Assembly: GCA_965215605.1 (NCBI GenBank)
Contig: OZ244070.1
Location: forward strand, 3,008,001 to 3,072,000
Source of the DNA: an uncultured Candidatus Binatia bacterium
GTDB taxonomy: Bacteria; Desulfobacterota; Binatia; UBA9968; JAJDTQ01
Direction of reading: 5' to 3'
Length of the DNA stretch: 64,000 nucleotides
In this document: positions 17,272 to 42,807 of the stretch, in pieces
How the letters are laid out: each line of letters starts with the position of its first letter
Position numbering within the stretch: position 1 is the stretch's first letter
The notes under the pieces: model-generated
What the model was told of the DNA's origin: nothing
Databases searched by the model: none
The model's input: the letters and a program-made list of their open reading frames with translations, nothing else
Translations under genes and position numbers: made by a program

Positions 17272-19269
17272 CTACAATTGACTGTAGTACCAGTCTTCAT
17301 GGACCAGCGACATGGGCTCCAGGAGATCCTCGGAGATCCCGTCGATGAACTGTGAGGGACGCGAGAACACCATCCCCAGGGAACGGTCGTACACGCGCGC
17401 GGGATAGGCGAAGAACAGGTTTTCCTTGGCGCGGGTGGCGGCCACGTAGAGCAGCCGGCGCTCTTCCTCCAGCTCCTCCAGGCTGTTGGTGTTGTAGTAC
17501 GACGGGAACCGGCCTTCCAGTGCCCAGATGACGAACACCGAATGCCACTCCAGCCCCTTGGCGGAGTGGACGGTGGAGAGCACCAGGGGGCCTTCGTCGG
17601 GGTCCACCGGCAGGGCCTCGTCGACGCTGGCGGAGGGCGGATCCAGCGCCATGTCGCTCAACAGGCGCTCGATGCTCTGGTAGCGTTCGGTGATCTCCTG
17701 GAAGTGCTCCAGGTCCCGCAGCCGCTTGGGATAGTCGTCGGCGTGTTTCCGCTTGAGGATCGGAAGATAGTACTGCATCAGGTAATGGGCCATGTCGGCG
17801 GGGCGGGTTCGTTCCGCGCACTCGCCCATAACCTGGGCCAGGGTCTTGAGCCCCTGCTTCGTCCGGCCCCGCGTTTCCATCCGCTTCAAGGCTTGGCCGG
17901 GATCCGCCTCGGCCAGCATCTGGTCGATGAGCTTGCGGCTCATCTGGGGGCCGATGCCCTCCAGCAGCATCAGCACCCGGCTCCAGGACACCGCGTCCCG
18001 CGGGTTGCTCACCACCCGCAGATGCGCCAGCAGGTCCTTCACATGGGCCGTTTCCATGAACTGGAAGCCGCCGCGCTTCACGAAGGGGATGTCGTGGCGG
18101 GCGAGCTCGATCTCGAGGTCGAATGAATGGAAGCTCGAGCGGAACAGCACCGCCATGTCCCACAGCGGCACTCCCTCTTCCCGCAGTTCCAGCACGCGCT
18201 GGCACACGAAGCGCGACTGGGCCTGCTCGCTCTCCGCCTGGACCAGCACCGGGACATCGCCTTCGCTCTTGCTGCTGAACAGGGTTTTCTCGTAGCGCTC
18301 CGAGGCCCGGGTGATGATCTCGTTGGTGAGCCGCAGGATGGGCTGGGTGCTGCGGTAGTTTTCCTCCAGCGCGATGATCGTTGTTCCCGGAAACTCGTTC
18401 GGGAAGTCCATGATGTTACGGAAGTTGGCGCCGCGGAAGGAGTAGATGCTCTGGGCGTCGTCGCCCACCGCCATGACGTTGTCGTGGGTGAAGGCCAGCC
18501 GGCGGACGATGTCCGATTGAAGGCGGTTGGTGTCCTGATATTCGTCCACCATGATGAAGCGAAAGCGCTCCGACAACCGGCGCCGCAAGTCCTCGTGCGA
18601 GTCCAGGAGGTCCCGGAGGCAGGTGAGCAGATCGTCGTAGTCCAGCAGGGACTTCTCGCGTTTGTAGACCTGGTAGCGTTCCGCGATGGTCGACAGTTCC
18701 TCCAGGAAATCCGCCAGGTGCGGGTAATCGCGCGCCACGATGTCGGGGAGAGGCACCTGCTTGTTGCGCGCCAGGCTGTGGATCTCGGCGATGGTCTGTT
18801 TCCGCGGAAAGCGCTTCTCCCGGCTGTCCAGACCCATCTGCGAGCGCAGGAGCTGGATCACGTCCTCGCTGTCGGAGCGGTCCATGATGGTGAAGCTCGG
18901 CGCCAGGCCCAGGAGTTGGCCGTATTGCCGCAGCACCATGTTGCCGAAGGAGTGGAACGTTCCCCCGGCCACGCGCTCGCAACGGGAGTCGGTCAGAAGG
19001 CTCGCCCGCCGCAGCATCTCTTCGGAGGCACGGCGGGTGAAGGTAAGCAGCAGGATCGATCGCGGGTCGATGCCCCTTTCAATGAGCCGGGCCACCCGGT
19101 AGACCAACGTACGGGTCTTTCCGGTGCCGGCGCCGGCGACGACCAGGAGCGGACCCTCGAGGAAGGTCGCGGCTTGCCGCTGCGCCTCGTTGAGCTCATC
19201 CTCATAGGCGATGGGGGATCCGGTGCGCGACGGTGCCGTGTCGCTCCTTAGGACGTATTTGCGCGCCAA
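17272..19269 (-). CDS. UvrD/PcrA/Rep-family SF1 DNA helicase
   Basis: AGAGTGKT, TFT, TFHSF, VDEYQD, VGDDAQSIYSFRGA, ENYRS, TVHSAKGLEW and YVAATRA. Likely TTG start at 19269 after GGAG. Confidence 0.92.
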   Translation of the reverse strand: MARKYVLRSDTAPSRTGSPIAYEDELNEAQRQAATFLEGPLLVVAGAGTGKTRTLVYRVARLIERGIDPRSILLLTFTRRASEEMLRRASLLTDSRCERVAGGTFHSFGNMVLRQYGQLLGLAPSFTIMDRSDSEDVIQLLRSQMGLDSREKRFPRKQTIAEIHSLARNKQVPLPDIVARDYPHLADFLEELSTIAERYQVYKREKSLLDYDDLLTCLRDLLDSHEDLRRRLSERFRFIMVDEYQDTNRLQSDIVRRLAFTHDNVMAVGDDAQSIYSFRGANFRNIMDFPNEFPGTTIIALEENYRSTQPILRLTNEIITRASERYEKTLFSSKSEGDVPVLVQAESEQAQSRFVCQRVLELREEGVPLWDMAVLFRSSFHSFDLEIELARHDIPFVKRGGFQFMETAHVKDLLAHLRVVSNPRDAVSWSRVLMLLEGIGPQMSRKLIDQMLAEADPGQALKRMETRGRTKQGLKTLAQVMGECAERTRPADMAHYLMQYYLPILKRKHADDYPKRLRDLEHFQEITERYQSIERLLSDMALDPPSASVDEALPVDPDEGPLVLSTVHSAKGLEWHSVFVIWALEGRFPSYYNTNSLEELEEERRLLYVAATRAKENLFFAYPARVYDRSLGMVFSRPSQFIDGISEDLLEPMSLVHEDWYYSQL

Positions 19270-19460
19270 GCCTGATCTCCAGTGATCTCCAGACGGTTGC
19301 CGGCGCGGGAGGCCGGCCTCGAGGCGTCCCGGAACCGCGGCGCCGGGACAGACCGGAAGGTTATCACAACGCGCCTTCCGCGGAAAGATTGGTTGTTGTA
19401 AACCCAAGGGTGAGGAACGCAATACTAGACAGGGCAGAAACACTCGATTGGATGGAATCC

Positions 19461-26471: not shown

Positions 26472-27659
26472 GTGGACCCGATACGTAACCCTTATGCCCC
26501 AGGGGCAGGCACGCAACCGCCTGAGTTGGCCGGTCGCGACGAAGTTCGGGAGTCGGCAAGAATCGCGCTGCAGCGCACCCGAAGGGGACGCCCGACCAAG
26601 AGCATCATCATGGTGGGCCTCCGTGGTGTCGGCAAGACCGTGCTGCTGGATGTTATACGGGAGCAGGCCGAGTCCAGCGGAATCTGCGCGCTTCGAATGG
26701 AAGCGCCTGAAAATCGGTCTCTTCCCTCGATTCTTGCCCCTCAACTGCGTGTGGCACTGCTACGGCTCTCGAACAAGGAGACAGCGAAGCACCTTGCGCA
26801 AAGGGCTCTGCGAGGGCTTGCGGGATTCGTGCGAGCATTGAAAGTGAAGTATCAGGACATTGAGGTCGGACTGGACGTCGACCCCGAGCCCGGGCTGGCG
26901 GACAACGGAGACCTGGAAAGCGATCTGCAGGACTTGTTCGAGGTTGTCGGCTCCGTGGCCAAGGCGGACGGGAACTGTTTGGCTCTTTTTGTCGACGAGC
27001 TTCAATACGTGAAAGAGGACCAGTTGGCGGCATTGATCACCGCATTGCACCGCACATCTCAGCGACGGCTCCCCGTTGTGATGCTTGGCGCTGGACTCCC
27101 GCAGGTGCGGGGGCACATGGGAAAGGCGAAGTCATACGCCGAACGGCTCTTCGAGTTTCCCGAAATCGGACCGCTGTCACGTGAAGATGCCAAGGTCGCC
27201 ATCGCCAAGCCGGCGAAGGACGAAGGGGTTGAAATAGAACCGGCCGCTCTCGACGCGGTCGTTGATCGAACGGAATGCTACCCGTATTTCTTGCAGGAGT
27301 GGGGAAAACACCTGTGGAATGTGGCGGAGCAGTCCCCTGTCACGTTTTCCAGTGTCGAGATCGCCTCCCGGCAAGCCATTGCCGCCCTCGACGAGAGCTT
27401 CTTTCTGGTGAGGTTTGAAAGGTTGACGCCGACGGAGAAGGAATATCTGCGCGCCATGGCACAACTTGGTCCCGGATCGCATCGCTCCGGCGACATCGCC
27501 AACACATTGGGCCGGCCGGTTACTTCCTTGGCGCCCATCCGGAGCCAACTGATCAACAAGGGCGTGATCTGGAGTCCAAGCTACGGAGACACGGCCTTCA
27601 CGGTGCCCATGCTTGACGAATTCATGCGGCGCATCATGCCTGGCGAACCGTGGCGTTAG
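26472..27659 (+). CDS. AAA_16-like P-loop ATPase with probable C-terminal winged helix
   Basis: NPYAPG, LAGRD, GLRGVGKT (Walker A), FVDELQ (Walker B), YPYFLQ, and C-terminal LINKG.IW...YG...FTVP. Confidence 0.85.
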   Translation: MDPIRNPYAPGAGTQPPELAGRDEVRESARIALQRTRRGRPTKSIIMVGLRGVGKTVLLDVIREQAESSGICALRMEAPENRSLPSILAPQLRVALLRLSNKETAKHLAQRALRGLAGFVRALKVKYQDIEVGLDVDPEPGLADNGDLESDLQDLFEVVGSVAKADGNCLALFVDELQYVKEDQLAALITALHRTSQRRLPVVMLGAGLPQVRGHMGKAKSYAERLFEFPEIGPLSREDAKVAIAKPAKDEGVEIEPAALDAVVDRTECYPYFLQEWGKHLWNVAEQSPVTFSSVEIASRQAIAALDESFFLVRFERLTPTEKEYLRAMAQLGPGSHRSGDIANTLGRPVTSLAPIRSQLINKGVIWSPSYGDTAFTVPMLDEFMRRIMPGEPWR

Positions 27660-27794: not shown

Positions 27795-30700
27795 ATGTCC
27801 AATCCATTCTTCGAGCAGCCCGTCCTGAACTCGCCGTACGAGTACCCGAATCGCCATTGGGAACTGGACGACACCGGGCAACCGACCCAGAAGATCATCG
27901 ACCGCCGGAGGCCGGCGCAGTTCATCACGCCCATCCCGACGCCGAAGAAACGCCGCGGCTCTTCCGCCGATCAGGGCGCGATGCGTTTCGGCGACGGCAA
28001 CGACATTTCCACGGAGAACCAGCAGTACGAGCTCACCGCCATCATCAACAGCGTGCGCCAGCAGGTCGAGCGTTGGCGCAGCATACCGAACCCGCATCAG
28101 TGGCAGGTAACCCCTGAAACGGCCCGGCTACTTCAACACTGGCGCCATCACCGCTTCAGCGGCATTCGTCCCTTTTTCTGCCAGGTCGAGGCGGCGGAGA
28201 CGGTCATCTGGCTGACCGAGGTCGCTCCTCGGGCCGGTCGTACGGGCAGGCGGTTTCTCGACCACTTGGCAGACGCCAATCAAGAGGCCAATCCCGAGTT
28301 GCAGCGGTTGGCGCTCAAGCTGGCCACCGGCGCGGGCAAGACCACGGTGATGGCGATGCTTATCGCTTGGCAGACCGTCAACGCGGTGCGACACCCGCAG
28401 AGCCGCCGGTTCACGCGCGGTTTTCTGGTCGTGACGCCCGGCATCACCATCAAGGACCGCTTGAGGGTGCTCCAGCCCAACGATCCCGACAGCTACTATC
28501 AGAGCCGCGAACTGGTCCCGAACGACATGCTGCCGGACCTCCAGAAGGCGCGGATCGTCATCACCAACTACCACGCCTTCAAGCTGCGCGACCGCATGGC
28601 TCTTTCTAAAGGCGGCCGCTTGCTGCTCCAGGGCCGTGGTGAGGCGCTCGCCACCCTGGAGACCGATGGGCAGATGCTTCAGCGGGTCATGCCCGAGCTC
28701 ATGGGCATCAAGAACGTACTGGTGCTGAACGACGAGGCGCACCACTGCTACCGCGAGAAGCCGGAAAAGGACGAAGAAGGCGCGCTCAAGGGGGACGACA
28801 AGAAGGAGGCGGACAAGAACACCGAGGCCGCCCGGTTGTGGATATCGGGGCTCGAAGCGGTGGTGCGAAAGCTTGGCGTCAACCGGGTGTTGGATCTCTC
28901 GGCCACGCCGTTCTTTCTTCGAGGTTCAGGGTACGCCGAGGGGACGTTGTTTCCTTGGACCATGAACGACTTCTCCCTCATGGACGCCATCGAATGCGGC
29001 ATCGTCAAGCTTCCACGGGTGCCGGTGGCTGACAACCTCCCCGGCGATGAAATGCCCAAGTTCCGCAACCTTTGGGAGAACATCCGTAGCGAAATGCCGA
29101 AGAAGGGGAGGGGCAAAGGCGACACCCTCGACCCGCTGAATCTGCCGATCCTCCTCATGACCGCGTTGGAGGCACTGTACGGACACTACAAGAAGACCTA
29201 CGAAGCCATGGCAAGCGCGGGTATCGAAGTGCCGCCATGCTTCATCGTGGTGTGCAATAACACCTCCACCTCCAAGCTCGTCTACGACTACATCTCGGGG
29301 TTTCACCGTGAGAACCCCGATGGTTCAACCACGCTACAGAACGGGTGCCTGGAGTTGTTCCGCAACTTTGACGAGCACGGCAACCGTTACCCGCGACCCC
29401 GTACTCTGTTGATCGACAGTGAGCAACTGGAGTCGGGCGACACCCTGGACAAGGACTTCCGCAAGATGGCCGCCGAAGAGATCGAGCGTTTCCGGCGGGA
29501 GATCACGGAGCGCACCGGAGATCGCCAGAAGGCAGAGAACATCAGTGATCAGGACCTTCTTCGGGAGGTGATGAACACCGTCGGCAAGCCGGGACGCTTG
29601 GGGGATTCGATTCGCTGCGTGGTGTCCGTGTCCATGCTGACCGAGGGCTGGGACGCGAACACGGTGAGCCACGTGCTTGGCGTGCGGGCATTCGGGACCC
29701 AGTTGCTGTGCGAACAGGTCGTTGGGCGGGCGTTGCGCCGCCAGTCGTACGATCTCAATGACGACGATCTGTTCGACGTTGAATACGCCGATGTGCTGGG
29801 CATACCTTTCGACTTTACCGCAAGGCCCGTGGTGGTCCCGACCAAGCCACCGCGAGAGACGGTTCAGGTCAACGCCGTGCGGCCCGAACGCGATGCGCTC
29901 GAAATCCGCTTTCCCCGCGTCGCCGGGTACCGCGTGGAGTTGCCCGAGGAGAGGCTGACCGCCGACTTCAACGAAGACTCCGTGCTGGATCTGACGCCGG
30001 CCCTCGTGGGACCTTCCATCACGCGGAACCAAGGCATTATCGGCGAGGCCGTCGACCTCAATCTGGTTCATACGGGAGATATGCGGCCGTCGACACTGCT
30101 TTTTCACCTGACACAACGGCTTCTCTACACCAAGTGGCGTGATCCGGGTGAAGAGCCCAAGCTCCATCTCTTCGGACAACTCAAACGTCTGACCAAGCAG
30201 TGGCTTGACCGCTGTCTTGTCTGCAATGGCAACACCTACCCCGCCCAGCTCATGTACCAGGAGCTGGCCGATATGGCGTGCGAACGCATCACCGCCGCCA
30301 TCACCCGCGCCGAGATGGACAGTAGCCGACCCGTAAAGGCGGTGCTGGACCCCTACAACCCCGTGGGTTCCACAGCCCACGTGAACTTCACCACCACCAA
30401 GACAAGCCGTTGGAACACGGACGCCAATCGCTGCCACATCAACTGGGTGGTCCTGGACAGCGACTGGGAGGCCGAATTTTGCCGTGTGGCTGAATCCCAC
30501 CCGCGGGTAAGGGCATACGTCAAGAACCATAGTCTCGGTTTCGAGGTTCCTTACCGCTACGCGTCCGAAGCGCGGACCTACATCCCGGATTTCATTGTTC
30601 TCGTAGACGACGGTCACGGGGACGACGATCTCCTGCGCCTCGTCGTCGAGATCAAGGGCTATCGCGGGGAGGATGCCAAGGAGAAGAAGGCCACCATGGA

Positions 30701-30872
30701 TACCTACTGGGTGCCGGGAGTCAACCGTCACGGCTCCTTTGGCCGCTGGGCGTTCGCCGAGTTTACCGAGGTGTACGAAATTCAGGGAGACTTCGAGGCG
30801 AGAGTAGAGGAAGCGTTCAACGACGTGATCAAACAATGTCTTCCGGAGGCGGCAGTCGAAGTTGCGCAGTGA
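27795..30872 (+). CDS. res: Type III-like restriction enzyme Res subunit (SF2 ATPase + PD-(D/E)xK)
   Basis: KLATGAGKT, DEAHH, SATP, MLTEGWD, QVVGRALR and C-terminal YIPDF...VEIKG. Confidence 0.9.
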   Translation: MSNPFFEQPVLNSPYEYPNRHWELDDTGQPTQKIIDRRRPAQFITPIPTPKKRRGSSADQGAMRFGDGNDISTENQQYELTAIINSVRQQVERWRSIPNPHQWQVTPETARLLQHWRHHRFSGIRPFFCQVEAAETVIWLTEVAPRAGRTGRRFLDHLADANQEANPELQRLALKLATGAGKTTVMAMLIAWQTVNAVRHPQSRRFTRGFLVVTPGITIKDRLRVLQPNDPDSYYQSRELVPNDMLPDLQKARIVITNYHAFKLRDRMALSKGGRLLLQGRGEALATLETDGQMLQRVMPELMGIKNVLVLNDEAHHCYREKPEKDEEGALKGDDKKEADKNTEAARLWISGLEAVVRKLGVNRVLDLSATPFFLRGSGYAEGTLFPWTMNDFSLMDAIECGIVKLPRVPVADNLPGDEMPKFRNLWENIRSEMPKKGRGKGDTLDPLNLPILLMTALEALYGHYKKTYEAMASAGIEVPPCFIVVCNNTSTSKLVYDYISGFHRENPDGSTTLQNGCLELFRNFDEHGNRYPRPRTLLIDSEQLESGDTLDKDFRKMAAEEIERFRREITERTGDRQKAENISDQDLLREVMNTVGKPGRLGDSIRCVVSVSMLTEGWDANTVSHVLGVRAFGTQLLCEQVVGRALRRQSYDLNDDDLFDVEYADVLGIPFDFTARPVVVPTKPPRETVQVNAVRPERDALEIRFPRVAGYRVELPEERLTADFNEDSVLDLTPALVGPSITRNQGIIGEAVDLNLVHTGDMRPSTLLFHLTQRLLYTKWRDPGEEPKLHLFGQLKRLTKQWLDRCLVCNGNTYPAQLMYQELADMACERITAAITRAEMDSSRPVKAVLDPYNPVGSTAHVNFTTTKTSRWNTDANRCHINWVVLDSDWEAEFCRVAESHPRVRAYVKNHSLGFEVPYRYASEARTYIPDFIVLVDDGHGDDDLLRLVVEIKGYRGEDAKEKKATMDTYWVPGVNRHGSFGRWAFAEFTEVYEIQGDFEARVEEAFNDVIKQCLPEAAVEVAQ

Positions 30873-31066: not shown

Positions 31067-31270
31067 ATGAAGCTGAAAGTCGTGATCCATCAAGCTGACG
31101 AAGGCGGTTATTGGGCGGAAGTGCCTTCCATCCCCGGCTGTGCGACGCAGGGGGATTCATTCGAAGAGTTGTTGACGAATCTCTACGAAGCCGTCGAAGG
31201 TTGTCTGTCCGTCGACGTTCGTGATCTGCCCGTCTCGGGGAAGGCAAGGGTGATCGAGATTGCGATATGA
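31067..31270 (+). CDS. hicB: HicB-family antitoxin (short form)
   Basis: [26 protein letters not shown]. Upstream TATAAT at 30968. Confidence 0.9.
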
Positions 31271-31473
31271 GGGCGGTCAGCGGCAGGCAGTTCTCCAGGC
31301 TTCTTGAATCCAAGGGATGGCGGTTGAAGCGCATAAACGGGAGCCATTTCATCTATGTGAAGTCAGGATCTGCCGTTCGCCTCTCAGTACCGGTCCACGG
31401 AGACACATCGCTGAAAGCCGGGCTCCAGAGACACCTGATGAAGTTGGCAGGCATCCACGAGTCGGATCTGTAA
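31267..31473 (+). CDS. hicA: HicA-family mRNA interferase toxin
   Basis: LESKGW...RINGSH, SVPVHG and LKAGL. ATGA overlap with hicB. Confidence 0.9.
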
Positions 31474-31513: not shown

Positions 31514-34336
31514 ATGGCGAAGCGAAAATCGAGCAAGACGGTCGAGATCCTTCAGCACTCGAAGGCTTCACGAAAGAACATCCCCACCGCCGAATATCAA
31601 CCGCTCATGACCGACAAGGATCAGAGTTCGGTTCAGGTGGCCTACGAGCGCCGAAACCGTGATCTTGACCCACAACTCGTCTGGCGGGGCAAGGATGTGC
31701 AGGACTGGTCCGACCTCGTCGTCCAGGCGCCGCCGCTCTTCATTCAGGAAAAGGTCCACCCGAAGGCTCTGATCGAGGATATGCTGCGCAGGAGTAAGCA
31801 GGGGGAGGAGGCCAGCGACGAGCCCGGCTTCCAGGCCGACCTTTTCGCCGATTTCAACGGCCTTCCTTCCGAGGATGCCAGGACCGAGTTCTACCAGCAC
31901 GATGCCAACTGGTCGAACCGGATGATCCTGGGCGACAGCTTGCAGGTGATGGCGTCGCTGGCGGAGCGGGAGGGACTGCGCGGCAAGGTGCAGTGCATCT
32001 ACATCGACCCGCCCTACGGCATCAAGTTCAACTCCAACTTCCAGTGGTCAACGACCAGCCGTGACGTCAAGGACGGCAATGCGGCGCACATCACGCGCGA
32101 GCCGGAGCAGGTGAAGGCGTTTCGGGATACGTGGCGCGATGGGATTCATTCGTATTTGACATATTTGCGGGATCGGCTGACGGTGGCACGGGATTTGTTG
32201 GCTGAGAGCGGGTCGATCTTTGTGCAGATCGGGGACGAGAATGTGCATCGGGTACGGGTGGTGATGGACGAGGTGTTTGGGGAAGAGAACGTAGTATCTC
32301 AAATTGGATTTGCGAAGACATCTGGTTCTACAGACGATTTCCTCGGCCAAACAACGGACTGCCTTTTGTGGTACGCAAAAGACAAGACGCAGATCAAATT
32401 TCGTCGTGCGCTGAAAGACAAAAGAGCGGGTGAGCCTGGAGGAACGAACTACAACCGATTACGTGACAGTTTCGGCCGGAGTCGGTCAATTAAAGCAGAT
32501 GAAGATCTGAGCCGGGAAATCGAATCCGGGGAGTTGCGGATCTACTCTTTGGATAATTTGACGTCTCAAAGTGCAGGACGGGACAAAGGCGAAGGCGCAG
32601 CTTCCTGGTTTGGGGTGGAGTTTGCGGGAAGGACGTATAAGCCTTCGCTCGCGGTCCGCTGGAAGACGAATGAAACGGGAATGTCTAGGTTAAAATGCGC
32701 TGGCCGTCTCGAAGGGACTTATGCGCGGCTCGGATACGTGCGTTATCTGGAAGACTTTCCTGTAGTTCAAATCAACAACCGCTGGTACGATGTAGCGGCG
32801 AGCTTCATGGCCAATAAGGTTTATGTAGTACAGACATCTCCAACCGTCATTCAACGCTGCATCCTGATGACCACAGACCCCGGCGATTTGGTCCTGGACC
32901 CCACCTGCGGCTCCGGCACCGCCGCGTATGTTGCCGAGCAATGGGGTCGCCGTTGGATTACCGTTGACACCTCTCGCGTTGCCCTCGCGTTGGCCCGGGC
33001 TCGTATCATGGGTGCTCGTTATCCCTACTACTTGCTCACCGACAGCCGCGATGGCCAAATCAAAGAAGCTGCGCTTGCCCGCAGGGTTCCCTCAGCAGCG
33101 CCCACCTACAACGATATCCGCCTAGGCTTCGTGTACGAGCGTGTTCCCCACATCACGCTCAGGTCCATCGTCAACAACGCCGAGATAGACGTCATCTGGG
33201 AGAAGTTTCACGAAACGCTAGAACGGCTGCGTAAGGAGTTGAACCACGCCCTCAGCGCATCCTACGAGGAATGGGAGATCCCACGAGACGCCGATGAGGC
33301 TTGGTCCGTGGAAGTCAGGAAGATTCACGCGGAATGGTGGGAACAGCGAATCGCCCGGCAAAACGAAATCGACGCTTCCATCGCCGCCAAGGCCGACTAC
33401 GAGTACCTCTACGACAAGCCCTACGAAGACAACCGGAAAGCCCGCGTTGCCGGTCCCTTTACGGTGGAGAGTCTATCACCGCACCGTCTGCTGGGCGTCG
33501 ACGAACACGATGAACTCATCGACAAGGTCGCCGAAAGCACGTTCGGGTATGGCGACCAGCAGGATTTCGCCGCGATGATTCTTGACAATCTCAAGACCTC
33601 CGGTGTCCAACAGGCGCACAAAGAGAACCGCATCGCCTTCTCCAGTGTCCGTCCCTGGCCCGGAAGTTTCGTTTGTGCCGAGGGAGCTTACGTCGAAGGC
33701 AACGCCGACTCGGGTCCAAGAAAGCGCGCCGGCATCTTCATCGGCCCGGAATTCGGCACCGTCTCCCGCCCCGATCTCGTATCAGCGGTGCGCGAGGCCG
33801 CCGACGCCGACTTCGACGTGTTGATCGCCTGCGCTTTCAACTACGACGCCCACGCTTCGGAGTTCAACAAGCTCGGCCGCGTCCCGGTCCTCAAGGCCCG
33901 CATGAACGCCGACCTCCACATGGCCGGCGACCTCAAGAACACCGGCAAGGGCAACCTCTTCGTCATTTTCGGAGAGCCGGACATCGACATCCTCGAAGCG
34001 GAGGACGATCAGATCCAGGTCAAGGTCAACGGCGTCGACGTGTTCCACCCCAACACCGGCGAGATCCGCAGCGACGGCGCCGACGGCATCGCCTGCTGGT
34101 TCATCGATACCGATTACAACGAGGAAAGCTTCTTTGTCCGCCACGCCTACTTCCTTGGCGCCAGCGACCCATACAAGGCGCTCCAGACCACCCTCAAGGC
34201 CGAGATCAACGAGGAGGCTTGGGAAACGCTACACAGCGACACCTCCCGGCCTTTTGACAAACCCGCCTCCGGCCGCATCGCCGTAAAGGTAATCAATCAC
34301 CTCGGGGACGAGGTGATGAAGGTGTTTCGGGTGTGA
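31514..34336 (+). CDS. mod: Type III-like Mod DNA methyltransferase (N6-adenine, beta class)
   Basis: GDSLQVM, YIDPPYG (motif IV), a central TRD and VLDPTCGSGT (motif I). Confidence 0.92.
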   Translation: MAKRKSSKTVEILQHSKASRKNIPTAEYQPLMTDKDQSSVQVAYERRNRDLDPQLVWRGKDVQDWSDLVVQAPPLFIQEKVHPKALIEDMLRRSKQGEEASDEPGFQADLFADFNGLPSEDARTEFYQHDANWSNRMILGDSLQVMASLAEREGLRGKVQCIYIDPPYGIKFNSNFQWSTTSRDVKDGNAAHITREPEQVKAFRDTWRDGIHSYLTYLRDRLTVARDLLAESGSIFVQIGDENVHRVRVVMDEVFGEENVVSQIGFAKTSGSTDDFLGQTTDCLLWYAKDKTQIKFRRALKDKRAGEPGGTNYNRLRDSFGRSRSIKADEDLSREIESGELRIYSLDNLTSQSAGRDKGEGAASWFGVEFAGRTYKPSLAVRWKTNETGMSRLKCAGRLEGTYARLGYVRYLEDFPVVQINNRWYDVAASFMANKVYVVQTSPTVIQRCILMTTDPGDLVLDPTCGSGTAAYVAEQWGRRWITVDTSRVALALARARIMGARYPYYLLTDSRDGQIKEAALARRVPSAAPTYNDIRLGFVYERVPHITLRSIVNNAEIDVIWEKFHETLERLRKELNHALSASYEEWEIPRDADEAWSVEVRKIHAEWWEQRIARQNEIDASIAAKADYEYLYDKPYEDNRKARVAGPFTVESLSPHRLLGVDEHDELIDKVAESTFGYGDQQDFAAMILDNLKTSGVQQAHKENRIAFSSVRPWPGSFVCAEGAYVEGNADSGPRKRAGIFIGPEFGTVSRPDLVSAVREAADADFDVLIACAFNYDAHASEFNKLGRVPVLKARMNADLHMAGDLKNTGKGNLFVIFGEPDIDILEAEDDQIQVKVNGVDVFHPNTGEIRSDGADGIACWFIDTDYNEESFFVRHAYFLGASDPYKALQTTLKAEINEEAWETLHSDTSRPFDKPASGRIAVKVINHLGDEVMKVFRV

Positions 34337-34366: not shown

Positions 34367-35356
34367 ATGGCTAGCGGTGACCAAATCAAGGCATTACTGA
34401 AGTCGCACCTGGAGGGTGATGACGACCGCTTCTTTGCCGTCGCCATGCAGGTGGCGGCTCATGAGGCCAGGCTCGGCCATGGCAAACTTGCCGAACAGTT
34501 GCGCGCCATGGTTGACGAAGCCAAGGGCCAGGTTGGGACGGTTCGGCCCGTTCCCATCGGCCGCCCGCGAGGAGAACTCGCGAATCTCCTGGAAGCGTCA
34601 TACCCGAAGGCTCGTCTCAGTGAGATGATTCTCGGCGATGCTCTCGCTGAACAGATCAGCCGGGTCATCCGGGAGCAGCGCCAAGCCAGTCGCATCCTGG
34701 CATCTGGCCTTTCGCCCAGGCGAAAGTTGCTGCTGATAGGGCCTCCCGGCACAGGCAAGACGTTGACGGCTACGGTCTTGGCGGGGGAACTCCGCCTTCC
34801 TCTCTTCCAGGTCAGACTGGACGGGCTCATCACCAAGTTCATGGGAGAGACCGCGGCCAAACTAAGGCAGATATTCGATGCCACAAGTCGGAACCGGGGC
34901 ATCTACTTTTTCGATGAGTTCGACGCCATCGGTTCACAGCGGGGTCTTGCCAATGACGTGGGTGAGATCCGTCGCGTTTTGAACAGTTTCTTGCAGATGA
35001 TTGAGCAAGATGGTTCTCACAGTTTGGTCGTTGCGGCGACAAACCATCCCGGAATACTCGATCACGCCCTGTTCCGCCGTTTCGACGACGTCTTGCACTA
35101 TGAGTTGCCGGACATGTCACACATTGCAGACCTCCTGAAGAGACGGCTTGTCGGATCGGTTGCCAAGGGGTTCCGATGGGAGGCCTTGGCGGGACTGGCT
35201 CAGGGGCTGAGTTATGCCGAGGTAACGCGCGCGGCCAACGAGGCTCTCAAGGACGCGCTGATCCATGATCGTGACAGAATCCTTCCGGAAGAACTTCGGA
35301 CTGTGCTCGCCGAGCGCAAGCGCCTTGCCGAGAGGTTGACCACGCAAGTGGAATAG
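34367..35356 (+). CDS. AAA+ ATPase, IetA-like
   Basis: GPPGTGKT, FFDEFD and LDHALFRRFD. Directly upstream of an S8 peptidase. Confidence 0.88.
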   Translation: MASGDQIKALLKSHLEGDDDRFFAVAMQVAAHEARLGHGKLAEQLRAMVDEAKGQVGTVRPVPIGRPRGELANLLEASYPKARLSEMILGDALAEQISRVIREQRQASRILASGLSPRRKLLLIGPPGTGKTLTATVLAGELRLPLFQVRLDGLITKFMGETAAKLRQIFDATSRNRGIYFFDEFDAIGSQRGLANDVGEIRRVLNSFLQMIEQDGSHSLVVAATNHPGILDHALFRRFDDVLHYELPDMSHIADLLKRRLVGSVAKGFRWEALAGLAQGLSYAEVTRAANEALKDALIHDRDRILPEELRTVLAERKRLAERLTTQVE

Positions 35357-35376: not shown

Positions 35377-37908
35377 ATGGCGGAGGCAACCGCGGGTCGA
35401 CATCGGCACTTCATTCTCGAGGGTATCACCGAGACAGAGGAGTACCGCCGCCCGGGAAGTGGAGGGCAGCGCACTTCGATCCCGGAGCAGGAACGGACAC
35501 AGCATGGCGGAGCCCTGCTGGGCCAGCTTGCGGAGTGTCGAAGTGCCGCCGACGCCGCCCGAGAGATCCAGCAGACCGCAGGGTCCGAAGGAGGTCTGGG
35601 CCTCCAGGTCGAATTCGAGAGTTTCCCTGATGTCGAGTTGGCGTTCGAGAGCTTGGCGAGAGAACGCCAGGGCATCGAATTGCTGAACGTTCGCCATGAC
35701 GGGAGTCGGACCCTCGCCACTGTCTTCGTCCCCGACGGCAAGCTGGACCATTTCGAAGGGCTCATCCACGACTATCTGGATGGAAAGAGAGACCGCGCAG
35801 ACCGTCCTCGTGACAACAGGCGTCTCATCGACGCCATCCAGCAGATCCGAGCGGCAAGCATTCGGGCGCTTTGGACCGACGATGACGAGGCGTTTCCGAC
35901 ATCAGAAGAGGGTCCGTTGTGGTGGGAAGTATGGTTGCCGCGGAAAGGCTCTCCATCCGATCCCACGGCTGCGGATCAATTACTTGCCCCGGATGGTTTC
36001 CGACAGAGAGCCGAAGCCCAGGGAATTCAGGTGGCGCAAGGAGAAGCTCGATTTCCGGAGCGTACTGCCTTGCTGGTCCGGGCATCTCTCGAAGAGATGC
36101 AGCGTTCCATGGTTACGCTGAACAGCATCGCCGAGTTGCGGCGGGCGAAGGAGACGGCGGAGTTCTTTGATTCTCTGGAACAAGATGAGCAACGCGCATG
36201 GCTTGACGATCTCCTTGCACGAACACGATTCGCTCAAGATACCGAGGAGACACCTTACGTGTGTCTGCTCGATACGGGTGTCAATCGCGGGCATCGATTG
36301 CTTGCGCCAGCCCTTGACGCCCGTGACCTCCATACCGTCGAGCCTGGGTGGGGGACCAATGATGCCGAGGGGCATGGAACGGAGATGGCGGGTGTAGCTC
36401 TGGCCGGCAACTTGGCCGAGATCCTCGAAAGTAGCGACCCTGTAGAAATCGATCATCGACTCGAATCCGTCAAGCTACTGCCAAAGGGTGGAGCAACCGG
36501 AACGGCTCCCCGTCACCATGCGTACTTGACGCTCGAAGCGGTGGCGCGTCCCGAAGTTACGGCTCCGTCGCGGGTTCGAGTCTTTGGCATGGCCGTCACG
36601 GCGCGTGACAATCGGGACCGCGGGCGCCCGTCCTCTTGGTCCGGGGCGGTGGATTCGTTGGCGGCGGATATTGACGGACGCGGAGCCAATCCGCGGCTGC
36701 TAGTGGTGTCCGCGGGGAATGTCAGCGATCCCAGCGCGTGGTGGCATTATCCAAACAGTAACGAGACGGACGGAGTTCACGATCCTGCTCAAGCGTGGAA
36801 CGCCGTCACCGTAGGCGCCTATACCGACTTCGTCCAGATTGCTGAACCGGACGCTGCTGGCTATGTGCCGATCGCCCAGGCGGGCGAACTGAGTCCTTTC
36901 AGTACGCCCTCTCTGACATGGGAGCGCTTCTTGCCAAACAAGCCGGACATCGTTCTCGAAGGCGGCAACGCGGCCAAGGACTCACTGAGCGCGGTACCTC
37001 TGCCCAGCCTCAGCCTCTTGACGACGCACTATCGTCCCGCGGATCGACTCTTTACGACGACAAACGCGACCAGTGCCGCGATGGCGCTTGCATCCAGACT
37101 GGCGGCACAAATCAGAGGCGCTTACCCCGAGCTATGGCCGGAAACAGTGCGTGCGTTGATGGTCCACTCAGCCGAGTGGACGCCGGCCATGAAGCGTATG
37201 TTTCTGCAAGGTAGAAGACGCCCATCAAAGCTGGACTACGGGAATCTGGTACGGCGGTGTGGATTCGGCGTCCCGGACATCAATCGCGCAATTTGGAGTG
37301 TCGAGAACTCCCTGACGATGGTTGTTCAGGAAACGTTGCAGCCATTCAAACGTGTGCCGGGCAAGCAGGTCACTCTGCGCGATATGCATCTCCACAATCT
37401 GCCTTGGCCGCGCGATGTCCTTGAGGACTTGGGCGGCACGCAAGTCGAGATGCGGGTCACACTGTCGTACTTCATCGAGCCTAATCCCTCGCAACGGGGC
37501 GCCCGCTCCCGCTACCGGTATGAATCTCACGGCCTCCGCTTCGACGTAAAGCGCCCGCTGGAATCCACGGATGACTTTCGCCGTCGCATCAACTTGTTGG
37601 CAAGAGATGAAGAAACGGGAGGCAATCGCGGGGGTGGCGATCCGTCATGGCTAATCGGAGGCCAAGGACGCCATCGAGGTTCGTTGCACGGAGACATCTG
37701 GAGAGGCACGGCTGCGGACCTCGCGAATCGCGGTTCCATCGCTGTCTATCCCACTGCCGGCTGGTGGAAGACTCGACCTGCGCTGGAGCGTTACGACAAA
37801 ATAGCCCGGTATGCCTTGGTCGTCAGCATCAAGGCGCCGGAGGTGGACGTTGATCTCTACAGCGAGGTCGCTAATCTGATTGCGCCGAAGGTCGAAGTCG
37901 AGACCTGA
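35377..37908 (+). CDS. Subtilisin-like S8 peptidase, IetS-like
   Basis: LLDTG (Asp), HGTEMAG (His), SAGN, KPDIV and ATSAA (Ser). No signal peptide. Confidence 0.88.
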   Translation: MAEATAGRHRHFILEGITETEEYRRPGSGGQRTSIPEQERTQHGGALLGQLAECRSAADAAREIQQTAGSEGGLGLQVEFESFPDVELAFESLARERQGIELLNVRHDGSRTLATVFVPDGKLDHFEGLIHDYLDGKRDRADRPRDNRRLIDAIQQIRAASIRALWTDDDEAFPTSEEGPLWWEVWLPRKGSPSDPTAADQLLAPDGFRQRAEAQGIQVAQGEARFPERTALLVRASLEEMQRSMVTLNSIAELRRAKETAEFFDSLEQDEQRAWLDDLLARTRFAQDTEETPYVCLLDTGVNRGHRLLAPALDARDLHTVEPGWGTNDAEGHGTEMAGVALAGNLAEILESSDPVEIDHRLESVKLLPKGGATGTAPRHHAYLTLEAVARPEVTAPSRVRVFGMAVTARDNRDRGRPSSWSGAVDSLAADIDGRGANPRLLVVSAGNVSDPSAWWHYPNSNETDGVHDPAQAWNAVTVGAYTDFVQIAEPDAAGYVPIAQAGELSPFSTPSLTWERFLPNKPDIVLEGGNAAKDSLSAVPLPSLSLLTTHYRPADRLFTTTNATSAAMALASRLAAQIRGAYPELWPETVRALMVHSAEWTPAMKRMFLQGRRRPSKLDYGNLVRRCGFGVPDINRAIWSVENSLTMVVQETLQPFKRVPGKQVTLRDMHLHNLPWPRDVLEDLGGTQVEMRVTLSYFIEPNPSQRGARSRYRYESHGLRFDVKRPLESTDDFRRRINLLARDEETGGNRGGGDPSWLIGGQGRHRGSLHGDIWRGTAADLANRGSIAVYPTAGWWKTRPALERYDKIARYALVVSIKAPEVDVDLYSEVANLIAPKVEVET

Positions 37909-37909
37909 G

Positions 37910-40054
37910 ATGCAATTTATCATCGCAAATACCTTCACCGAGAGCCTCGCCAGGCTGACCGGCGACGAACAGAAGGCCGCTAAGACGACGGTCTTCGACC
38001 TTCAGACCGACCCTTCGCAGCCGGGACTCAGTTTCCACCGGGTCAGGAACCCAAAGGACCGGAACTTCTGGTCCGTTCGCGTGAGTAGTGATGTTAGGAT
38101 CATTGTGCACAAGAGCGCCGACAGCACGGTCTTGTGCTACGTGGACCATCACGAAGACGCCTACAAATGGGCCGAACGCCGCAAGCTGGAGACCCATCCG
38201 AAGACCGGTGCAGCGCAACTGGTCGAACTCCGAGAGACGGTCAGGGAAATCATCGTGCCAAGGGCCGTCGAACCAGTGCCGGAGGTTCAGCCGAAACCGC
38301 TGCTGTTCGCGGGCATCAGCGATGACGCTCTCCTGGGGTATGGGGTTCCGGGTGAATGGTTGAATGATGTACGGGCCGCTGACGAGGACAGTGTCCTGGA
38401 TTTGGCCGCGCACCTGCCGGCGGAAGCGGCGGAGGCGCTACTGGTTCTGGCGGTGGGCGGGACGCCTCAGATGGCGCTGGCTTCGTCCGGTCCGCGTTCG
38501 TTCGAAGACTCCGACCTTCCGATGATGGTAGCGGAGGCGGCGGTAGAGTATGGTGCCGCGCTACCTCCCGACCCCTTCGATCACCCTGACGCGCAGCGTC
38601 GTTTCCGCGTCATGCACGACATCGCGGAACTGGAACGCGCCCTGAGCTATCCGTGGGAAAAATGGGCCGTGTTCCTCCACCCGGTGCAGCAACAGATCGT
38701 CGAGAAATTCTACGGCGGCCCGGCCCGGGTGTTTGGCACCGCGGGCACCGGCAAGACGGTGGTGGCACTCCACCGGGCCGTGCACCTCGCCCGGAACAAT
38801 CCCGATGCCAGGGTCCTGTTGACCACCTTCTCCGACACCTTGGCGGATGCGCTCAGGACCAAGCTCGCACGATTGATCCACAACGAGCCGCGACTCGCGG
38901 AGCGGGTGGAAGTCGAGGCCATCGACGCAGTCGGCGAGCGCCTTTATCGTTCCCAGTTCGGTCCCCCGAGGATTGCCACACGCGCAGAGATCGAGGAACT
39001 GCTGGTCGACGCGGCGGGTGAAGCAGAAAAGGGTGACTTCAGCCTCCGGTTCCTGCTGGGCGAGTGGGAGAACGTGGTCGATGCGTGGCAGTTGGATACT
39101 TGGGAGGCGTACCGTGATGTGCGCCGGCTTGGTCGGAAGACACGGCTTCCTGTCGAACGCCGCGCGGTGCTTTGGGCGATTTTCGAGAGGGTCCGCATGG
39201 AGATCCAGAACCGAGGGTGGTTGACCAGGGCCGGCACGTTCGGCTTGCTGGCCGAGAATCTCAAGGATCGGCCACATCCGCCGTTTGAATTCGCGGTCGT
39301 GGATGAGGCGCAGGATATCAGTGTCGCGCGACTGCGTTTTCTGGCGGCGTTGGGAGGGGACCGACCGAACGGTCTCTTCTTTGCGGGGGATCTTGGTCAG
39401 CGCATCTTCCAAACGCCGTTTTCGTGGAAGGCCATGGGCGTCGAGGTTCGCGGGAGATCTCAGGTCCTGAAGCTCAACTACCGCACTTCCCATCAGATCA
39501 GGGTTAAGGCTGACCGTTTGCTCGGCCCGGAAGTTACCGATGTCGACGGTAATGTGGATGACCGGCGAGGAACGGTTTCGGCATTCAATGGCCCCGATCC
39601 CATCATGCGCGTATTCGAAACACAGCAGGAAGAGGCAGATGCCGTCGCGCAATGGTTGCAGCAATGTGCCAGCGAAGGCGTGAGCCCCGGTGAGATGGGA
39701 GTATTCGTGCGGTCTGCGGCGCAATTGGACCGGGCTCGTAAGGCAGTGACCCACGCCGGACTCTTTGTTCAGGTCTTGGATGAACAGGATAGCAATAGTG
39801 GCGACCGTGTCTCGATAAGCACCATGCATCTGGCAAAGGGTCTTGAGTTCCGTGCCGTCGCAGTCATGGCATGTGACGATGAAGTCCTTCCCTTACAGGA
39901 ACGGATCGAGAACGTGGCCGACGAAGCCGACCTTGAGGAGGTCTACGACACGGAAAGGCACCTGCTCTACGTGGCCTGTACGCGCGCCCGCGACCACTTG
40001 ATAGTCACGGCGGTCGAGCCAGCGTCCGAGTTCCTGGATGACCTCCAGACATGA
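37910..40054 (+). CDS. SF1 (UvrD-like) helicase with N-terminal RelE/ParE-like domain
   Basis: N-terminal PGLSFHRV...FWSVRVSSDVRIIV...YVDHH. GTAGTGKT, VDEAQD, NYRT, TMHLAKGLEF and LYVACTRAR. Confidence 0.85.
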   Translation: MQFIIANTFTESLARLTGDEQKAAKTTVFDLQTDPSQPGLSFHRVRNPKDRNFWSVRVSSDVRIIVHKSADSTVLCYVDHHEDAYKWAERRKLETHPKTGAAQLVELRETVREIIVPRAVEPVPEVQPKPLLFAGISDDALLGYGVPGEWLNDVRAADEDSVLDLAAHLPAEAAEALLVLAVGGTPQMALASSGPRSFEDSDLPMMVAEAAVEYGAALPPDPFDHPDAQRRFRVMHDIAELERALSYPWEKWAVFLHPVQQQIVEKFYGGPARVFGTAGTGKTVVALHRAVHLARNNPDARVLLTTFSDTLADALRTKLARLIHNEPRLAERVEVEAIDAVGERLYRSQFGPPRIATRAEIEELLVDAAGEAEKGDFSLRFLLGEWENVVDAWQLDTWEAYRDVRRLGRKTRLPVERRAVLWAIFERVRMEIQNRGWLTRAGTFGLLAENLKDRPHPPFEFAVVDEAQDISVARLRFLAALGGDRPNGLFFAGDLGQRIFQTPFSWKAMGVEVRGRSQVLKLNYRTSHQIRVKADRLLGPEVTDVDGNVDDRRGTVSAFNGPDPIMRVFETQQEEADAVAQWLQQCASEGVSPGEMGVFVRSAAQLDRARKAVTHAGLFVQVLDEQDSNSGDRVSISTMHLAKGLEFRAVAVMACDDEVLPLQERIENVADEADLEEVYDTERHLLYVACTRARDHLIVTAVEPASEFLDDLQT

Positions 40055-40650: not shown

Positions 40651-41286
40651 TTATAGGCTGTCATCCCGCGGAGGTATCTGCAATCCACGCTTCACCGCCG
40701 GCCGGGAGCCGACCCGGGCCAGCCATTCCCGCACATTCGGGTAGCGGTCGAGGTCGACCTCCTGCATCTGCCAGCGGTAGATCCATGGGTAGGCGGCCAC
40801 GTCGGCGATGGAATAGTCGCCGGCCAGATAGTCTCGTCCTTCCAGCCCGCGGTTCAGCACGCCGTAGACGCGGTTGTTCTCCGCCTGCCAGACGCCCAGA
40901 TGGGCGTGCTCTTCGCCGGCGTCGCGGCGGCGTATCTGCCAGTGCACGCCCAGGCCCGTGTGGGTGATGTGGCCAGAGGCGAAGAAGAGCCAGTTCAGTA
41001 CTTCCATGCGGGCAGACGGCTCTTGCGGCAGGAGCCGTCCCGACTTCTCCGCCAGGTAGATGAGGATGGCGCCCGACTCGAACACGGTGACGGACACGCC
41101 GCCGGGGCCGTCGTCATCGACGATGCAGGGGATCCGGCCGTTGGGATTGATGGCCAGATACCAGTCTTCCTTCTGCTCCATGTTCTCCAGGGCCATGGGC
41201 CTGACCGTGTAGTCCAGCCCCGATTCCTCCAGCATGATGGATGCCTTGCGGCCGTTGGAGGTTGCCTTGCTGTAGAGGGTGATCAT
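40651..41286 (-). CDS. Glutathione S-transferase (YfcG/Nu-like)
   Basis: TSNGRK, INPNGRIP, FESGAIL.YLAEK and YSIAD. Confidence 0.92.
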   Translation of the reverse strand: MITLYSKATSNGRKASIMLEESGLDYTVRPMALENMEQKEDWYLAINPNGRIPCIVDDDGPGGVSVTVFESGAILIYLAEKSGRLLPQEPSARMEVLNWLFFASGHITHTGLGVHWQIRRRDAGEEHAHLGVWQAENNRVYGVLNRGLEGRDYLAGDYSIADVAAYPWIYRWQMQEVDLDRYPNVREWLARVGSRPAVKRGLQIPPRDDSL

Positions 41287-41889: not shown

Positions 41890-42807
41890 TCAATCGTCCG
41901 GAAAGTAATCCGAGTCGATCCTTTTCACTTCGTAGGTTTCCTCGGTCGTCACTCCGACGCCGTGGTCGATCATGAGCTCGGCGAGTTTGTCTCCGTCGAT
42001 CAGAATGATCTTGGTTTCGATGTTGGCCGCGAACGCCATTGCCTCACGAGAATAAGTGGAAGTAGTGATGAAGACGCCCTTACGGGCGCGCTGTCCCTGA
42101 AGGGCACCAGCAAATTTCTGGACGTCGGGCCTGCCGACGACACTCTCCCAGCGTTTGGCCTGTACGTAAATGATGTCGAGTCCCAGTCGGTCCTCTTTGA
42201 TGATACCGTCTATGCCCTCGTCGCCGGAGCGGCCTATCGCCTCCCCGGCTTCCTGTCGTGAACCGCCGTAGCCCATACGGAGGAGTAGATCCACGACCAG
42301 TTGCTCGAAGAAAGAGGGGGGCGACTCCAGAACTGCCGTAAGCAACTCGCCTGCCAAATTCTTGCGTAGCACTAGGTACGCATCCTGGAGGGTTTCCTCG
42401 GGCGTGTCTTCCTGGTCTCCGTTAGTCGGAGGGGTTTCTCCAACCTGCAATGAGGGCTGGCGGCGACGCTGCTGAAAGCTCTTGAACTCTTCGAACTGTT
42501 CAAGAAATTTGATATTGATCGCCGAGGGTTTGCCAGCGAGAACCTCACGTCCCCTTTCCGTGATGCGAAAGTAGCCCCTCTTGGGAGATTCCAGTAGGCC
42601 GGCATTTGTGAGGTATGACCGAGCCCAGTTGATTCGGTTGACAAACCTTGGCTGGCGGCCACTCGGCAAGATTTCCCTTTTCTCATCCTCCGTTAAGTTG
42701 AAGCGTTGGGCCAGAATGTCGTATGTTTGGCGGCGATGGCGGGTTTCCCCGTCTGCGGCCAGCTCCAGCAAAGGTAACATTAAAGACTGAAAGTCTGGGA
42801 TCGGCAT
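41890..42807 (-). CDS. mrr: Mrr type IV restriction endonuclease
   Basis: MPIPDFQSLMLPLL, NRINWA, FFEQLVVDLL..MGYG, DEGIDG, VQAKRW and GVFITTS. Confidence 0.95.
   Translation of the reverse strand: MPIPDFQSLMLPLLELAADGETRHRRQTYDILAQRFNLTEDEKREILPSGRQPRFVNRINWARSYLTNAGLLESPKRGYFRITERGREVLAGKPSAINIKFLEQFEEFKSFQQRRRQPSLQVGETPPTNGDQEDTPEETLQDAYLVLRKNLAGELLTAVLESPPSFFEQLVVDLLLRMGYGGSRQEAGEAIGRSGDEGIDGIIKEDRLGLDIIYVQAKRWESVVGRPDVQKFAGALQGQRARKGVFITTSTYSREAMAFAANIETKIILIDGDKLAELMIDHGVGVTTEETYEVKRIDSDYFPDD

Follow-up and report, generated by a model that had tools for sequence, protein, structure and literature searches.

An ArmD-like helicase with a predicted RelE-fold domain behind a type III-like restriction-modification gene pair in a Candidatus Binatia genome

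Related defense systems

ARMADA type II is a defense system of four genes, all of which are essential for defense according to the available text of a 2025 preprint (PMC12458937). In the same text, the substitution K266A in the helicase ArmD abolishes protection, D454N causes only a partial loss of activity, and defense is described as direct and non-abortive, with infected cells that stay intact and undergo no metabolic shut-down (PMC12458937). Loss of defense after deletion of armD is also stated in the accessible part of a 2026 article (mBio, PMC13463889). In print, ArmD has been called GajB-like. An ArmD-like helicase gene lies in a stretch of 64,000 nucleotides from an uncultured Candidatus Binatia bacterium (contig OZ244070.1, positions 3,008,001 to 3,072,000 of the forward strand), here called the window. 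The gene is a stop-free open reading frame (ORF), and the translation of 714 residues comprises a predicted RelE-fold N-terminal domain (N-domain), a middle region and a UvrD-type superfamily 1 (SF1) helicase. It stands behind the genes of a restriction endonuclease (Res) and a long DNA methyltransferase (Mod). On balance, it probably belongs, as a conserved third gene, to a type III-like restriction-modification (R-M) operon, the joints of which are slots for swappable cargo genes. Coordinates are compiled in Table 1.

The window protein aligned collinearly over residues 5-701 with the fourth protein of an E. coli plasmid cluster (BLASTP, 33% identity, E 3e-94). This cluster has the order SNF2 protein, methyltransferase (1636 residues), helicase with DEAD and MZB domains (2113 residues), and helicase. 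The Walker A lysine of the E. coli homolog is residue 266 and the Walker B aspartate is residue 454, matching the ArmD mutant numbers in the available preprint text (PMC12458937). ArmD K266 aligns with K282 of the window protein. Both proteins have a RelE-like N-domain, a small helical module and a GajB/UvrD-like helicase. They have in common the motifs S-V-R and V-D-H-H-D-x-A-Y-x-W-A as well as a hairpin with conserved G and Q, and each is encoded by the last gene of a methylase-containing defense operon. Judged by sequence, the window protein is a collinear ArmD homolog from a different operon type. This link provides an experimental anchor for the helicase family. The original prediction presumed a gene that was not yet a component of any named system. 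This is contradicted in part: a collinear homolog of 33% identity bears the name ArmD, although in another type of operon.

The partner genes differ between the two operon types. ArmA is Snf2-type (BrxHII-like), ArmB is PglX-like and ArmC is a YprA/DUF1998 protein, whereas the window operon encodes a BPTD_3080-family Res and a type III-like N6/N4 Mod. No match to MZB/DUF1998 or to an Eco57I-type methylase was found among the eight window proteins scanned. The helicases of the ARMADA clade and of the R-M-linked clade are about 30-36% identical; within the R-M-linked group, identities to the window protein lie between about 45% and 89%. The phylum of the window also yielded weaker N-domain matches (E 1e-13 to 1e-23), which belonged to helicases 30-33% identical to that of the window. 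The genes of these helicases come after those of an Eco57I-type methylase and of a DEAD/Helicase_C/MZB protein of roughly 2,100 residues, which is the ARMADA type II layout; MZB was carried by all four large ORFs scanned upstream of them. ARMADA-like clusters were also found on Thermus and Aulosira plasmids.

Operon structure and occurrence

The helicase family comprises at least 8,000 proteins in a collection clustered at 90%; all scored candidates matched, and the best 120 are 66-89% identical. The first 255 residues were matched by 3,010 representatives at 50% clustering, and 549 stretches were confirmed in contigs of one genome per species; the family has members in many phyla. Family members are named merely 'UvrD-helicase domain-containing protein' or '3'-5' exonuclease' by the Prokaryotic Genome Annotation Pipeline (PGAP). 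For the comparison of loci, 80 of the 549 stretches were kept, of which 63 hold the helicase N-terminus and at least 1 kb of upstream sequence.

In 56 of these 63 loci, a long methylase gene precedes the helicase in the same orientation, and Res was present upstream in every locus with a flank long enough (18/18). Downstream of the helicase no conservation was detected, the largest downstream ORF family occurring in three of 68 loci. A single-gene effector had been predicted; the gene is instead the terminal one of a Res-Mod-helicase operon. The predicted defense setting was borne out. The Res of the window matched NF046055 with 1372 bits (cut-off 800), ResIII (E 3.5e-9) and RE_endonuc (E 1.6e-4). 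Mod matched N6_N4_Mtase (E 2.9e-32) and the PADLOC model MTase_III (PDLC03632, E 0). Cargo-free or nearly cargo-free operons were found on plasmids of cultured bacteria (Pseudomonas amygdali, Rhizobium), annotated as BPTD_3080 endonuclease, methyltransferase and UvrD-helicase protein.

A survey of the linkage covered 401 genomes from the phylum of the window and used profile searches with Res (NF046055) and the helicase N-domain. Res was matched in 59 genomes, 47 of them exceeding the cut-off, and the N-domain in 18, of which 11 matched strongly. Six of the best eight Res matches (at least 1351 bits) are followed by the helicase on their own contig and strand; one match is located at a contig end and one is without helicase. 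An association of the whole Res family with the helicase was rejected, since the link is seen only in the closest Res subfamily (59 against 18 of the 401 genomes). A Res of a lower-scoring subfamily, 33% identical to that of the window (genome G107), has neither Mod nor helicase adjoining.

The operon resembles classical type III R-M systems (EcoP1I, EcoP15I) in the N6/N4 Mod and in a Res with ResIII ATPase and endonuclease domain. Unlike these, it has the order res then mod, a Mod with a conserved C-terminal half of roughly 440 residues, a conserved SF1 helicase as third gene, and joints that carry cargo. The PADLOC models of type III restriction endonucleases matched Res barely (E about 3e-4). 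With the helicase fixed behind the Res-Mod pair, the operon would represent a three-gene restriction system, which the scanned PADLOC models of 2023 miss as one system.

Another three-gene operon of helicase and methylase with defense systems embedded in its joints is Hma. According to the available texts, 62.7% of 1,485 Hma systems contain embedded genes (Payne et al., 2021, PMC8565338; 2024, bioRxiv 10.1101/2024.01.29.577857). As far as the same 2021 text describes it, Hma consists of the helicase HmaA, the 5-methylcytosine (m5C) methylase HmaB and the ATPase HmaC (PMC8565338), whereas the window methylase is of the N6/N4 type. Identity with Hma was rejected; no Hma model was among the PADLOC matches listed for the window proteins. 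The helicase shares a UvrD-like core with GajB of the Gabija system and was matched in part by GajB models (best E 7.3e-26). A GajA-type gene was not found in the window operon by Pfam and PADLOC scans. To our knowledge, GajB has not been described with a RelE-like N-domain.

Cargo slots

The gap between methylase and helicase was at most 20 nucleotides in nine of the 56 loci, 21-400 in three, 401-1500 in 13 and more than 1500 in 31. Cargo-free loci show a gap of 6-13 nucleotides. The Pfam analysis covered 65 of 115 gap ORFs; those resembling IetA or IetS, and most that were short or on the opposite strand, had been set aside. A family was found for 42 of the 65 ORFs and none for the other 23. 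The cargo includes AAA_21 with DUF4276, GmrSD, ThsB-TIR, TIR with DUF559, and HamA with a DEAD helicase (Hachiman). Further families are reverse transcriptases, SIR2, Schlafen/AlbA_2, AAA_13 with RhuM, an ABC-3C module and HerA. The joints of the operon are rich ground for finding new defense genes.

In the window, the Mod-helicase joint is occupied by ietA and ietS. The stop codon of ietS (TGA, 37906-37908) is separated by one nucleotide from the helicase start, and a low-confidence acidic linker is present in the helicase at residues 192-218. Release of the toxin domain by a coupled IetS-like protease was one alternative of the original prediction. Such a coupled effector, in which IetS would cleave the linker and free a RelE-like toxin, is very improbable: IetA and IetS occupy the joint in only eight of the 56 loci, other loci have unrelated cargo or none with an equally conserved helicase, and the close spacing belongs to the slot itself, as seen from the gaps of the cargo-free loci.

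The second cargo slot is the Res-Mod joint of 641 nucleotides. In the window it contains a pair of a hicB-like antitoxin gene (67 residues, UPF0150/HicB_lk E about 1e-6) and a hicA toxin gene (68 residues, E 9.6e-14), which overlap by four nucleotides. The AAA_16 ATPase gene located 5' of Res is probably mobile cargo as well, at the 5' edge of the operon; a homolog with 66% identity resides in the methylase-helicase slot of another locus (L037, 6785-7969). On a Thermus thermophilus plasmid (L090), an NYN-domain gene and two opposite-strand hypothetical genes lie between ARMADA-like core genes. Cargo embedding may occur in ARMADA-type operons as well.

N-terminal domain

The start of the helicase is assigned to the ATG, not to a possible alternative TTG upstream (37880), because all 59 aligned relatives begin at the same methionine. 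Residues 1-255 were modeled by AlphaFold2 with an alignment of 60 rows (mean predicted local distance difference test (pLDDT) 88.8, predicted template modeling score (pTM) 0.81). The modeled N-domain has the order strand, helix, helix, four strands (42-44, 53-57, 62-68, 72-80) and helix. In a Foldseek search of the PDB, the listed matches with E of at most 0.01 were almost all toxins of the RelE/YoeB/YafQ/HigB type. The top match was RelE of M. jannaschii (3bpq_B) with E 1.9e-4, a template modeling score on the target of 0.75 and a root-mean-square deviation (rmsd) of 2.6 over 84 columns. VIA-align against 48,161 chains ranked RelE/ParE-superfamily toxins in the first 24 rows, with Z falling from 9.3 to 5.8, except for Cami1 and the insecticidal toxin Txp40, two larger proteins aligned over a RelE-sized stretch. 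The best chain was E. coli YafQ (4q2u_B) with Z 9.3 and rmsd 2.1 over 85 of 90 residues; Cami1 reached Z 7.8 and was also in the Foldseek list (8phj). The RelE/ParE-like N-domain suggested by the original prediction is thus confirmed at the level of the models, as a RelE-superfamily fold of residues 1-90.

Sequence searches yielded lower signals. Pfam matches of the window protein were below threshold for ParE_like (E 1.4e-3, 19.0 bits, cut-off 24.4) and HigB-like (E 2e-3, 19.0 bits, cut-off 27). HigB-like_toxin was matched at E of at most 0.01 by the N-domains of 48 of 59 relatives (best 2.1e-6). Among PDB sequences, the 255 N-terminal residues matched nothing meaningful, the best being a transaminase (E 0.57). 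A look-up of residues 1-110 in the ESM Atlas returned clusters of small size, including one with the name RelE family toxin (scores 0.95-0.96); they possibly represent gene fragments and serve as a lead only.

Ten N-domain residues are invariant in 59 relatives from many phyla (D50, F53, R57, R63, H67, Y77, H81, A84, Y85, W87), and the following beta-hairpin contains six more (R91, H96, P97, T99, G100, Q103). In an alignment of both helicase clades, R63, H81, A84, Y85, W87, G100 and Q103 were invariant. A weak hidden Markov model (HMM) alignment to RelE 3bpq_B (E 0.81) paired R57 with the arginine in the R-x-R-V-G motif, H80-H81 with the H-R pair and Y85 with the C-terminal tyrosine of that protein; R63 fell at a serine position and H81 on an arginine. 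The Arg, His and Tyr positions near the C-terminal helix may correspond to those that are catalytic in RelE-type RNases.

Among 69 full-length genes, the amino acid identity of pairs was 0.75 in residues 1-105, 0.59 in residues 106-255 and 0.64 in the helicase core. The identity of four-fold synonymous sites was 0.34-0.37 along the whole gene, compared with 0.295 expected from base composition. High amino acid identity together with nearly saturated synonymous sites indicates that the N-domain is kept by purifying selection on the protein rather than by recent DNA exchange. Conservation as a by-product of recombination at the cargo slots was rejected, as the synonymous sites are near saturation in the N-domain, too. 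In the first 35 codons (37910-38014), synonymous-site identity is slightly raised (0.42, about 0.34 elsewhere). Possible causes are a constraint on translation initiation and recombination at the joint with the cargo.

Residues 1-90 share their fold with the RelE, YafQ and YoeB toxins and with Cami1 (CARF-RelE). Unlike these, the window protein has no CARF sensor, no antitoxin gene and a fusion to a DNA helicase; an RNase activity is putative. In Cami1, the RelE domain reportedly works inside a larger defense protein. The terms 'helicase' and 'UvrD' do not occur in Gerdes's survey of multidomain RelE/ParE proteins. The predicted lack of a dedicated antitoxin gene was verified. No downstream ORF family is common to more than three of 68 loci, and an upstream gene has no room in nine loci because the gap between methylase and helicase is at most 20 nucleotides. 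Control, if there is any, would consequently sit within the helicase protein.

A RelE fold with conserved Arg, His and Tyr positions and without antitoxin gene would suit an abortive back-up, the main idea of the original prediction. The helicase would sense phage DNA, restriction-generated DNA or failed restriction and unmask a RelE-type RNase, and the block of translation would result in arrest or death of the cell. DNA ends would be supplied by the obligate R-M link, and Cami1, the structure of which is solved, is a precedent from defense in which a sensor and a RelE domain are fused. This function appears unlikely, since the only studied homolog, ArmD, is part of a direct, non-abortive system with intact and metabolically unperturbed cells, as far as the available preprint text describes it (PMC12458937). 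ArmD is also essential for defense and not a back-up.

Alternatively, the RelE-fold domain may have ceased to be an enzyme and serve as a docking or nucleic-acid-binding module, tying the motor to Res-Mod (to ArmABC in ARMADA) or to RNA or DNA. Across two unrelated operon types, no part of the protein is better conserved than N-domain and hairpin, as fits a conserved interface, and the arginine of the solved RelE is replaced by histidine here (H81; alignment E 0.81). Within the superfamily, ParE-type members without typical RNase catalytic residues inhibit DNA gyrase instead, according to the accessible portion of an article (PMC11980606). Such a module is likewise judged improbable. The invariance of R57, R63, H81 and Y85 is an active-site rather than a surface-patch pattern, and the partners in ARMADA and in the R-M operon are wholly different, so that it is difficult to imagine one protein interface common to both.

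Middle region and helicase core

An acidic linker had been predicted between the N-domain and the helicase. Residues 130-224 are indeed acidic (17 D and E, two K and R); in the models, however, residues 138-181 form a confidently folded helical module, and low confidence is limited to residues 192-218. The module (residues 130-185) carries the conserved motifs L..GVP.EW and LP.EAAEALL.LA.GG. VIA-align found no convincing fold match for it, the best having a Z of about 3 and being mixed (SAM-like and topoisomerase V stretches).

The UvrD N- and C-domains of Pfam were both matched by the window protein. Invariant across 45 sequences are G276, G279, G281 and K282 of Walker A, D465, E466, Q468 and D469 of Walker B, and also later motifs. 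The full-length model (pLDDT 83.9) matched the folds of UvrD, PcrA and Rep with E 1e-22 to 1e-18, the best match being D. radiodurans UvrD (E 1.2e-22). The helicase is a complete SF1A motor, as had been anticipated, and the housekeeping-type UvrD expected elsewhere in the window was found on the opposite strand. In a relative of 1951 residues (P0247), the RelE-helicase is fused to a PD-(D/E)xK nuclease and a second SF1 helicase of the Upf1/DNA2 type (AAA_11/AAA_12).

Proposed function

For the Res-Mod-helicase operon, we infer the following biochemical steps. Mod would mark host DNA, and Res would recognize and cut unmarked DNA. The helicase may load on the resulting nicks or ends. By analogy with K266 of ArmD, its ATPase would be needed for immunity. 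The RelE-fold domain, which appears to keep the Arg, His and Tyr positions of RelE-type RNases, may have a local action on RNA that it encounters on the invading DNA, or may otherwise couple the motor to its partners. The outcome would be direct immunity and not suicide, by analogy with ARMADA type II. The domain could work as an RNase that acts locally, as a toxin that is kept latent, or as an adaptor.

A wider proposal is offered tentatively and is itself rather doubtful. The RelE-helicase may be a portable 'third motor' that was recruited independently by two unrelated immune systems based on methylation, ARMADA type II and type III-like R-M, giving DNA restriction an RNA-cutting arm. The helicase would track Res-marked foreign DNA, and the RelE-fold domain would destroy emerging transcripts or ribosome-bound messages. 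Immunity would then be local, and the cell would not be killed.

Several observations weigh against the assignment of an ArmD-type helicase to a conserved three-gene R-M operon and against the function proposed for it. In seven of the 63 loci no Mod was present in the sequence covered (L008, L009, L021, L027, L028, L036, L078). Of these, L008 has just 1.4 kb of upstream sequence, encoding IetS, L078 retains a short methylase remnant, and in L021 Mod is located 8.5 kb upstream. A complete genome (G022; locus L086, C1:1769000-1787000) has a close Res-Mod pair without helicase. Its Res and Mod are 69% and 67% identical to those of the window, and opposite-strand genes come directly after them; the locus is either naturally limited to two genes or has lost its helicase. 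The partners ArmA, ArmB and ArmC of ArmD are absent here, and 33% identity is the basis for transferring the function. RelE is aligned weakly (E 0.81) and the window protein falls below the Pfam cut-offs, so the match to the active site is putative. A RelE-domain mutant of ArmD is not mentioned in the available parts of the two ARMADA articles (PMC12458937, PMC13463889). No paper on a Res-Mod-helicase operon was found in a literature search that did not cover supplementary tables S1-S2 of PMC12458937, which may list R-M-linked relatives of ArmD.

Further features of the window

Table 1. Positions of the helicase gene, its predicted domains, the operon and flanking genes within the 64,000-nucleotide window
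Feature	Position	Strand	Basis or remark
ArmD-like helicase gene, 714 residues (RelE-fold N-domain, middle region, UvrD-type SF1 helicase)	37910..40054	+	
Predicted RelE-superfamily domain, residues 1-90	37910..38179	+	AlphaFold2, Foldseek, VIA-align, alignment
Conserved beta-hairpin after RelE core, residues 91-106	38180..38227	+	model and alignment
Small acidic helical module, residues 130-185	38297..38464	+	model, composition
Low-confidence acidic linker, residues 192-218	38483..38563	+	full-length model, composition
SF1A helicase core, residues 225-714	38582..40051	+	Pfam, invariant motifs, fold match
Walker A K282	38753-38755	+	
Walker B D465-E466	39302-39307	+	
Second UvrD, housekeeping-type	17272-19443	-	UvrD-helicase E 1.7e-74
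AAA_16/STAND-like ATPase	26472-27659	+	just 5' of Res
Res, BPTD_3080-family restriction endonuclease, ResIII ATPase and C-terminal endonuclease domain	27795..30872	+	first gene of the operon
hicB-like / hicA pair	31067..31473	+	cargo, Res-Mod joint
Mod, N6/N4 DNA methyltransferase, 940 residues, long conserved C-terminal half	31514..34336	+	
IetA AAA ATPase	34367..35356	+	cargo, Mod-helicase joint
IetS S8 peptidase	35377..37908	+	cargo, Mod-helicase joint
GST	40651-41286	-	past the operon
Mrr-type type IV restriction enzyme	41890-42807	-	PADLOC mREase_IV E 5.9e-87

A simple scan for promoters and terminators between 26000 and 43500 returned fewer sites than, or no more than, shuffled sequence. 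The GST gene past the operon is 93-94% identical in two other loci (L001, L002), which suggests that both share the chromosomal neighborhood of the window. The helicase gene lies inside a dip of G+C content from about 26 to 44 kb, with values of 0.57-0.62 compared with 0.63-0.69 in the rest of the window.

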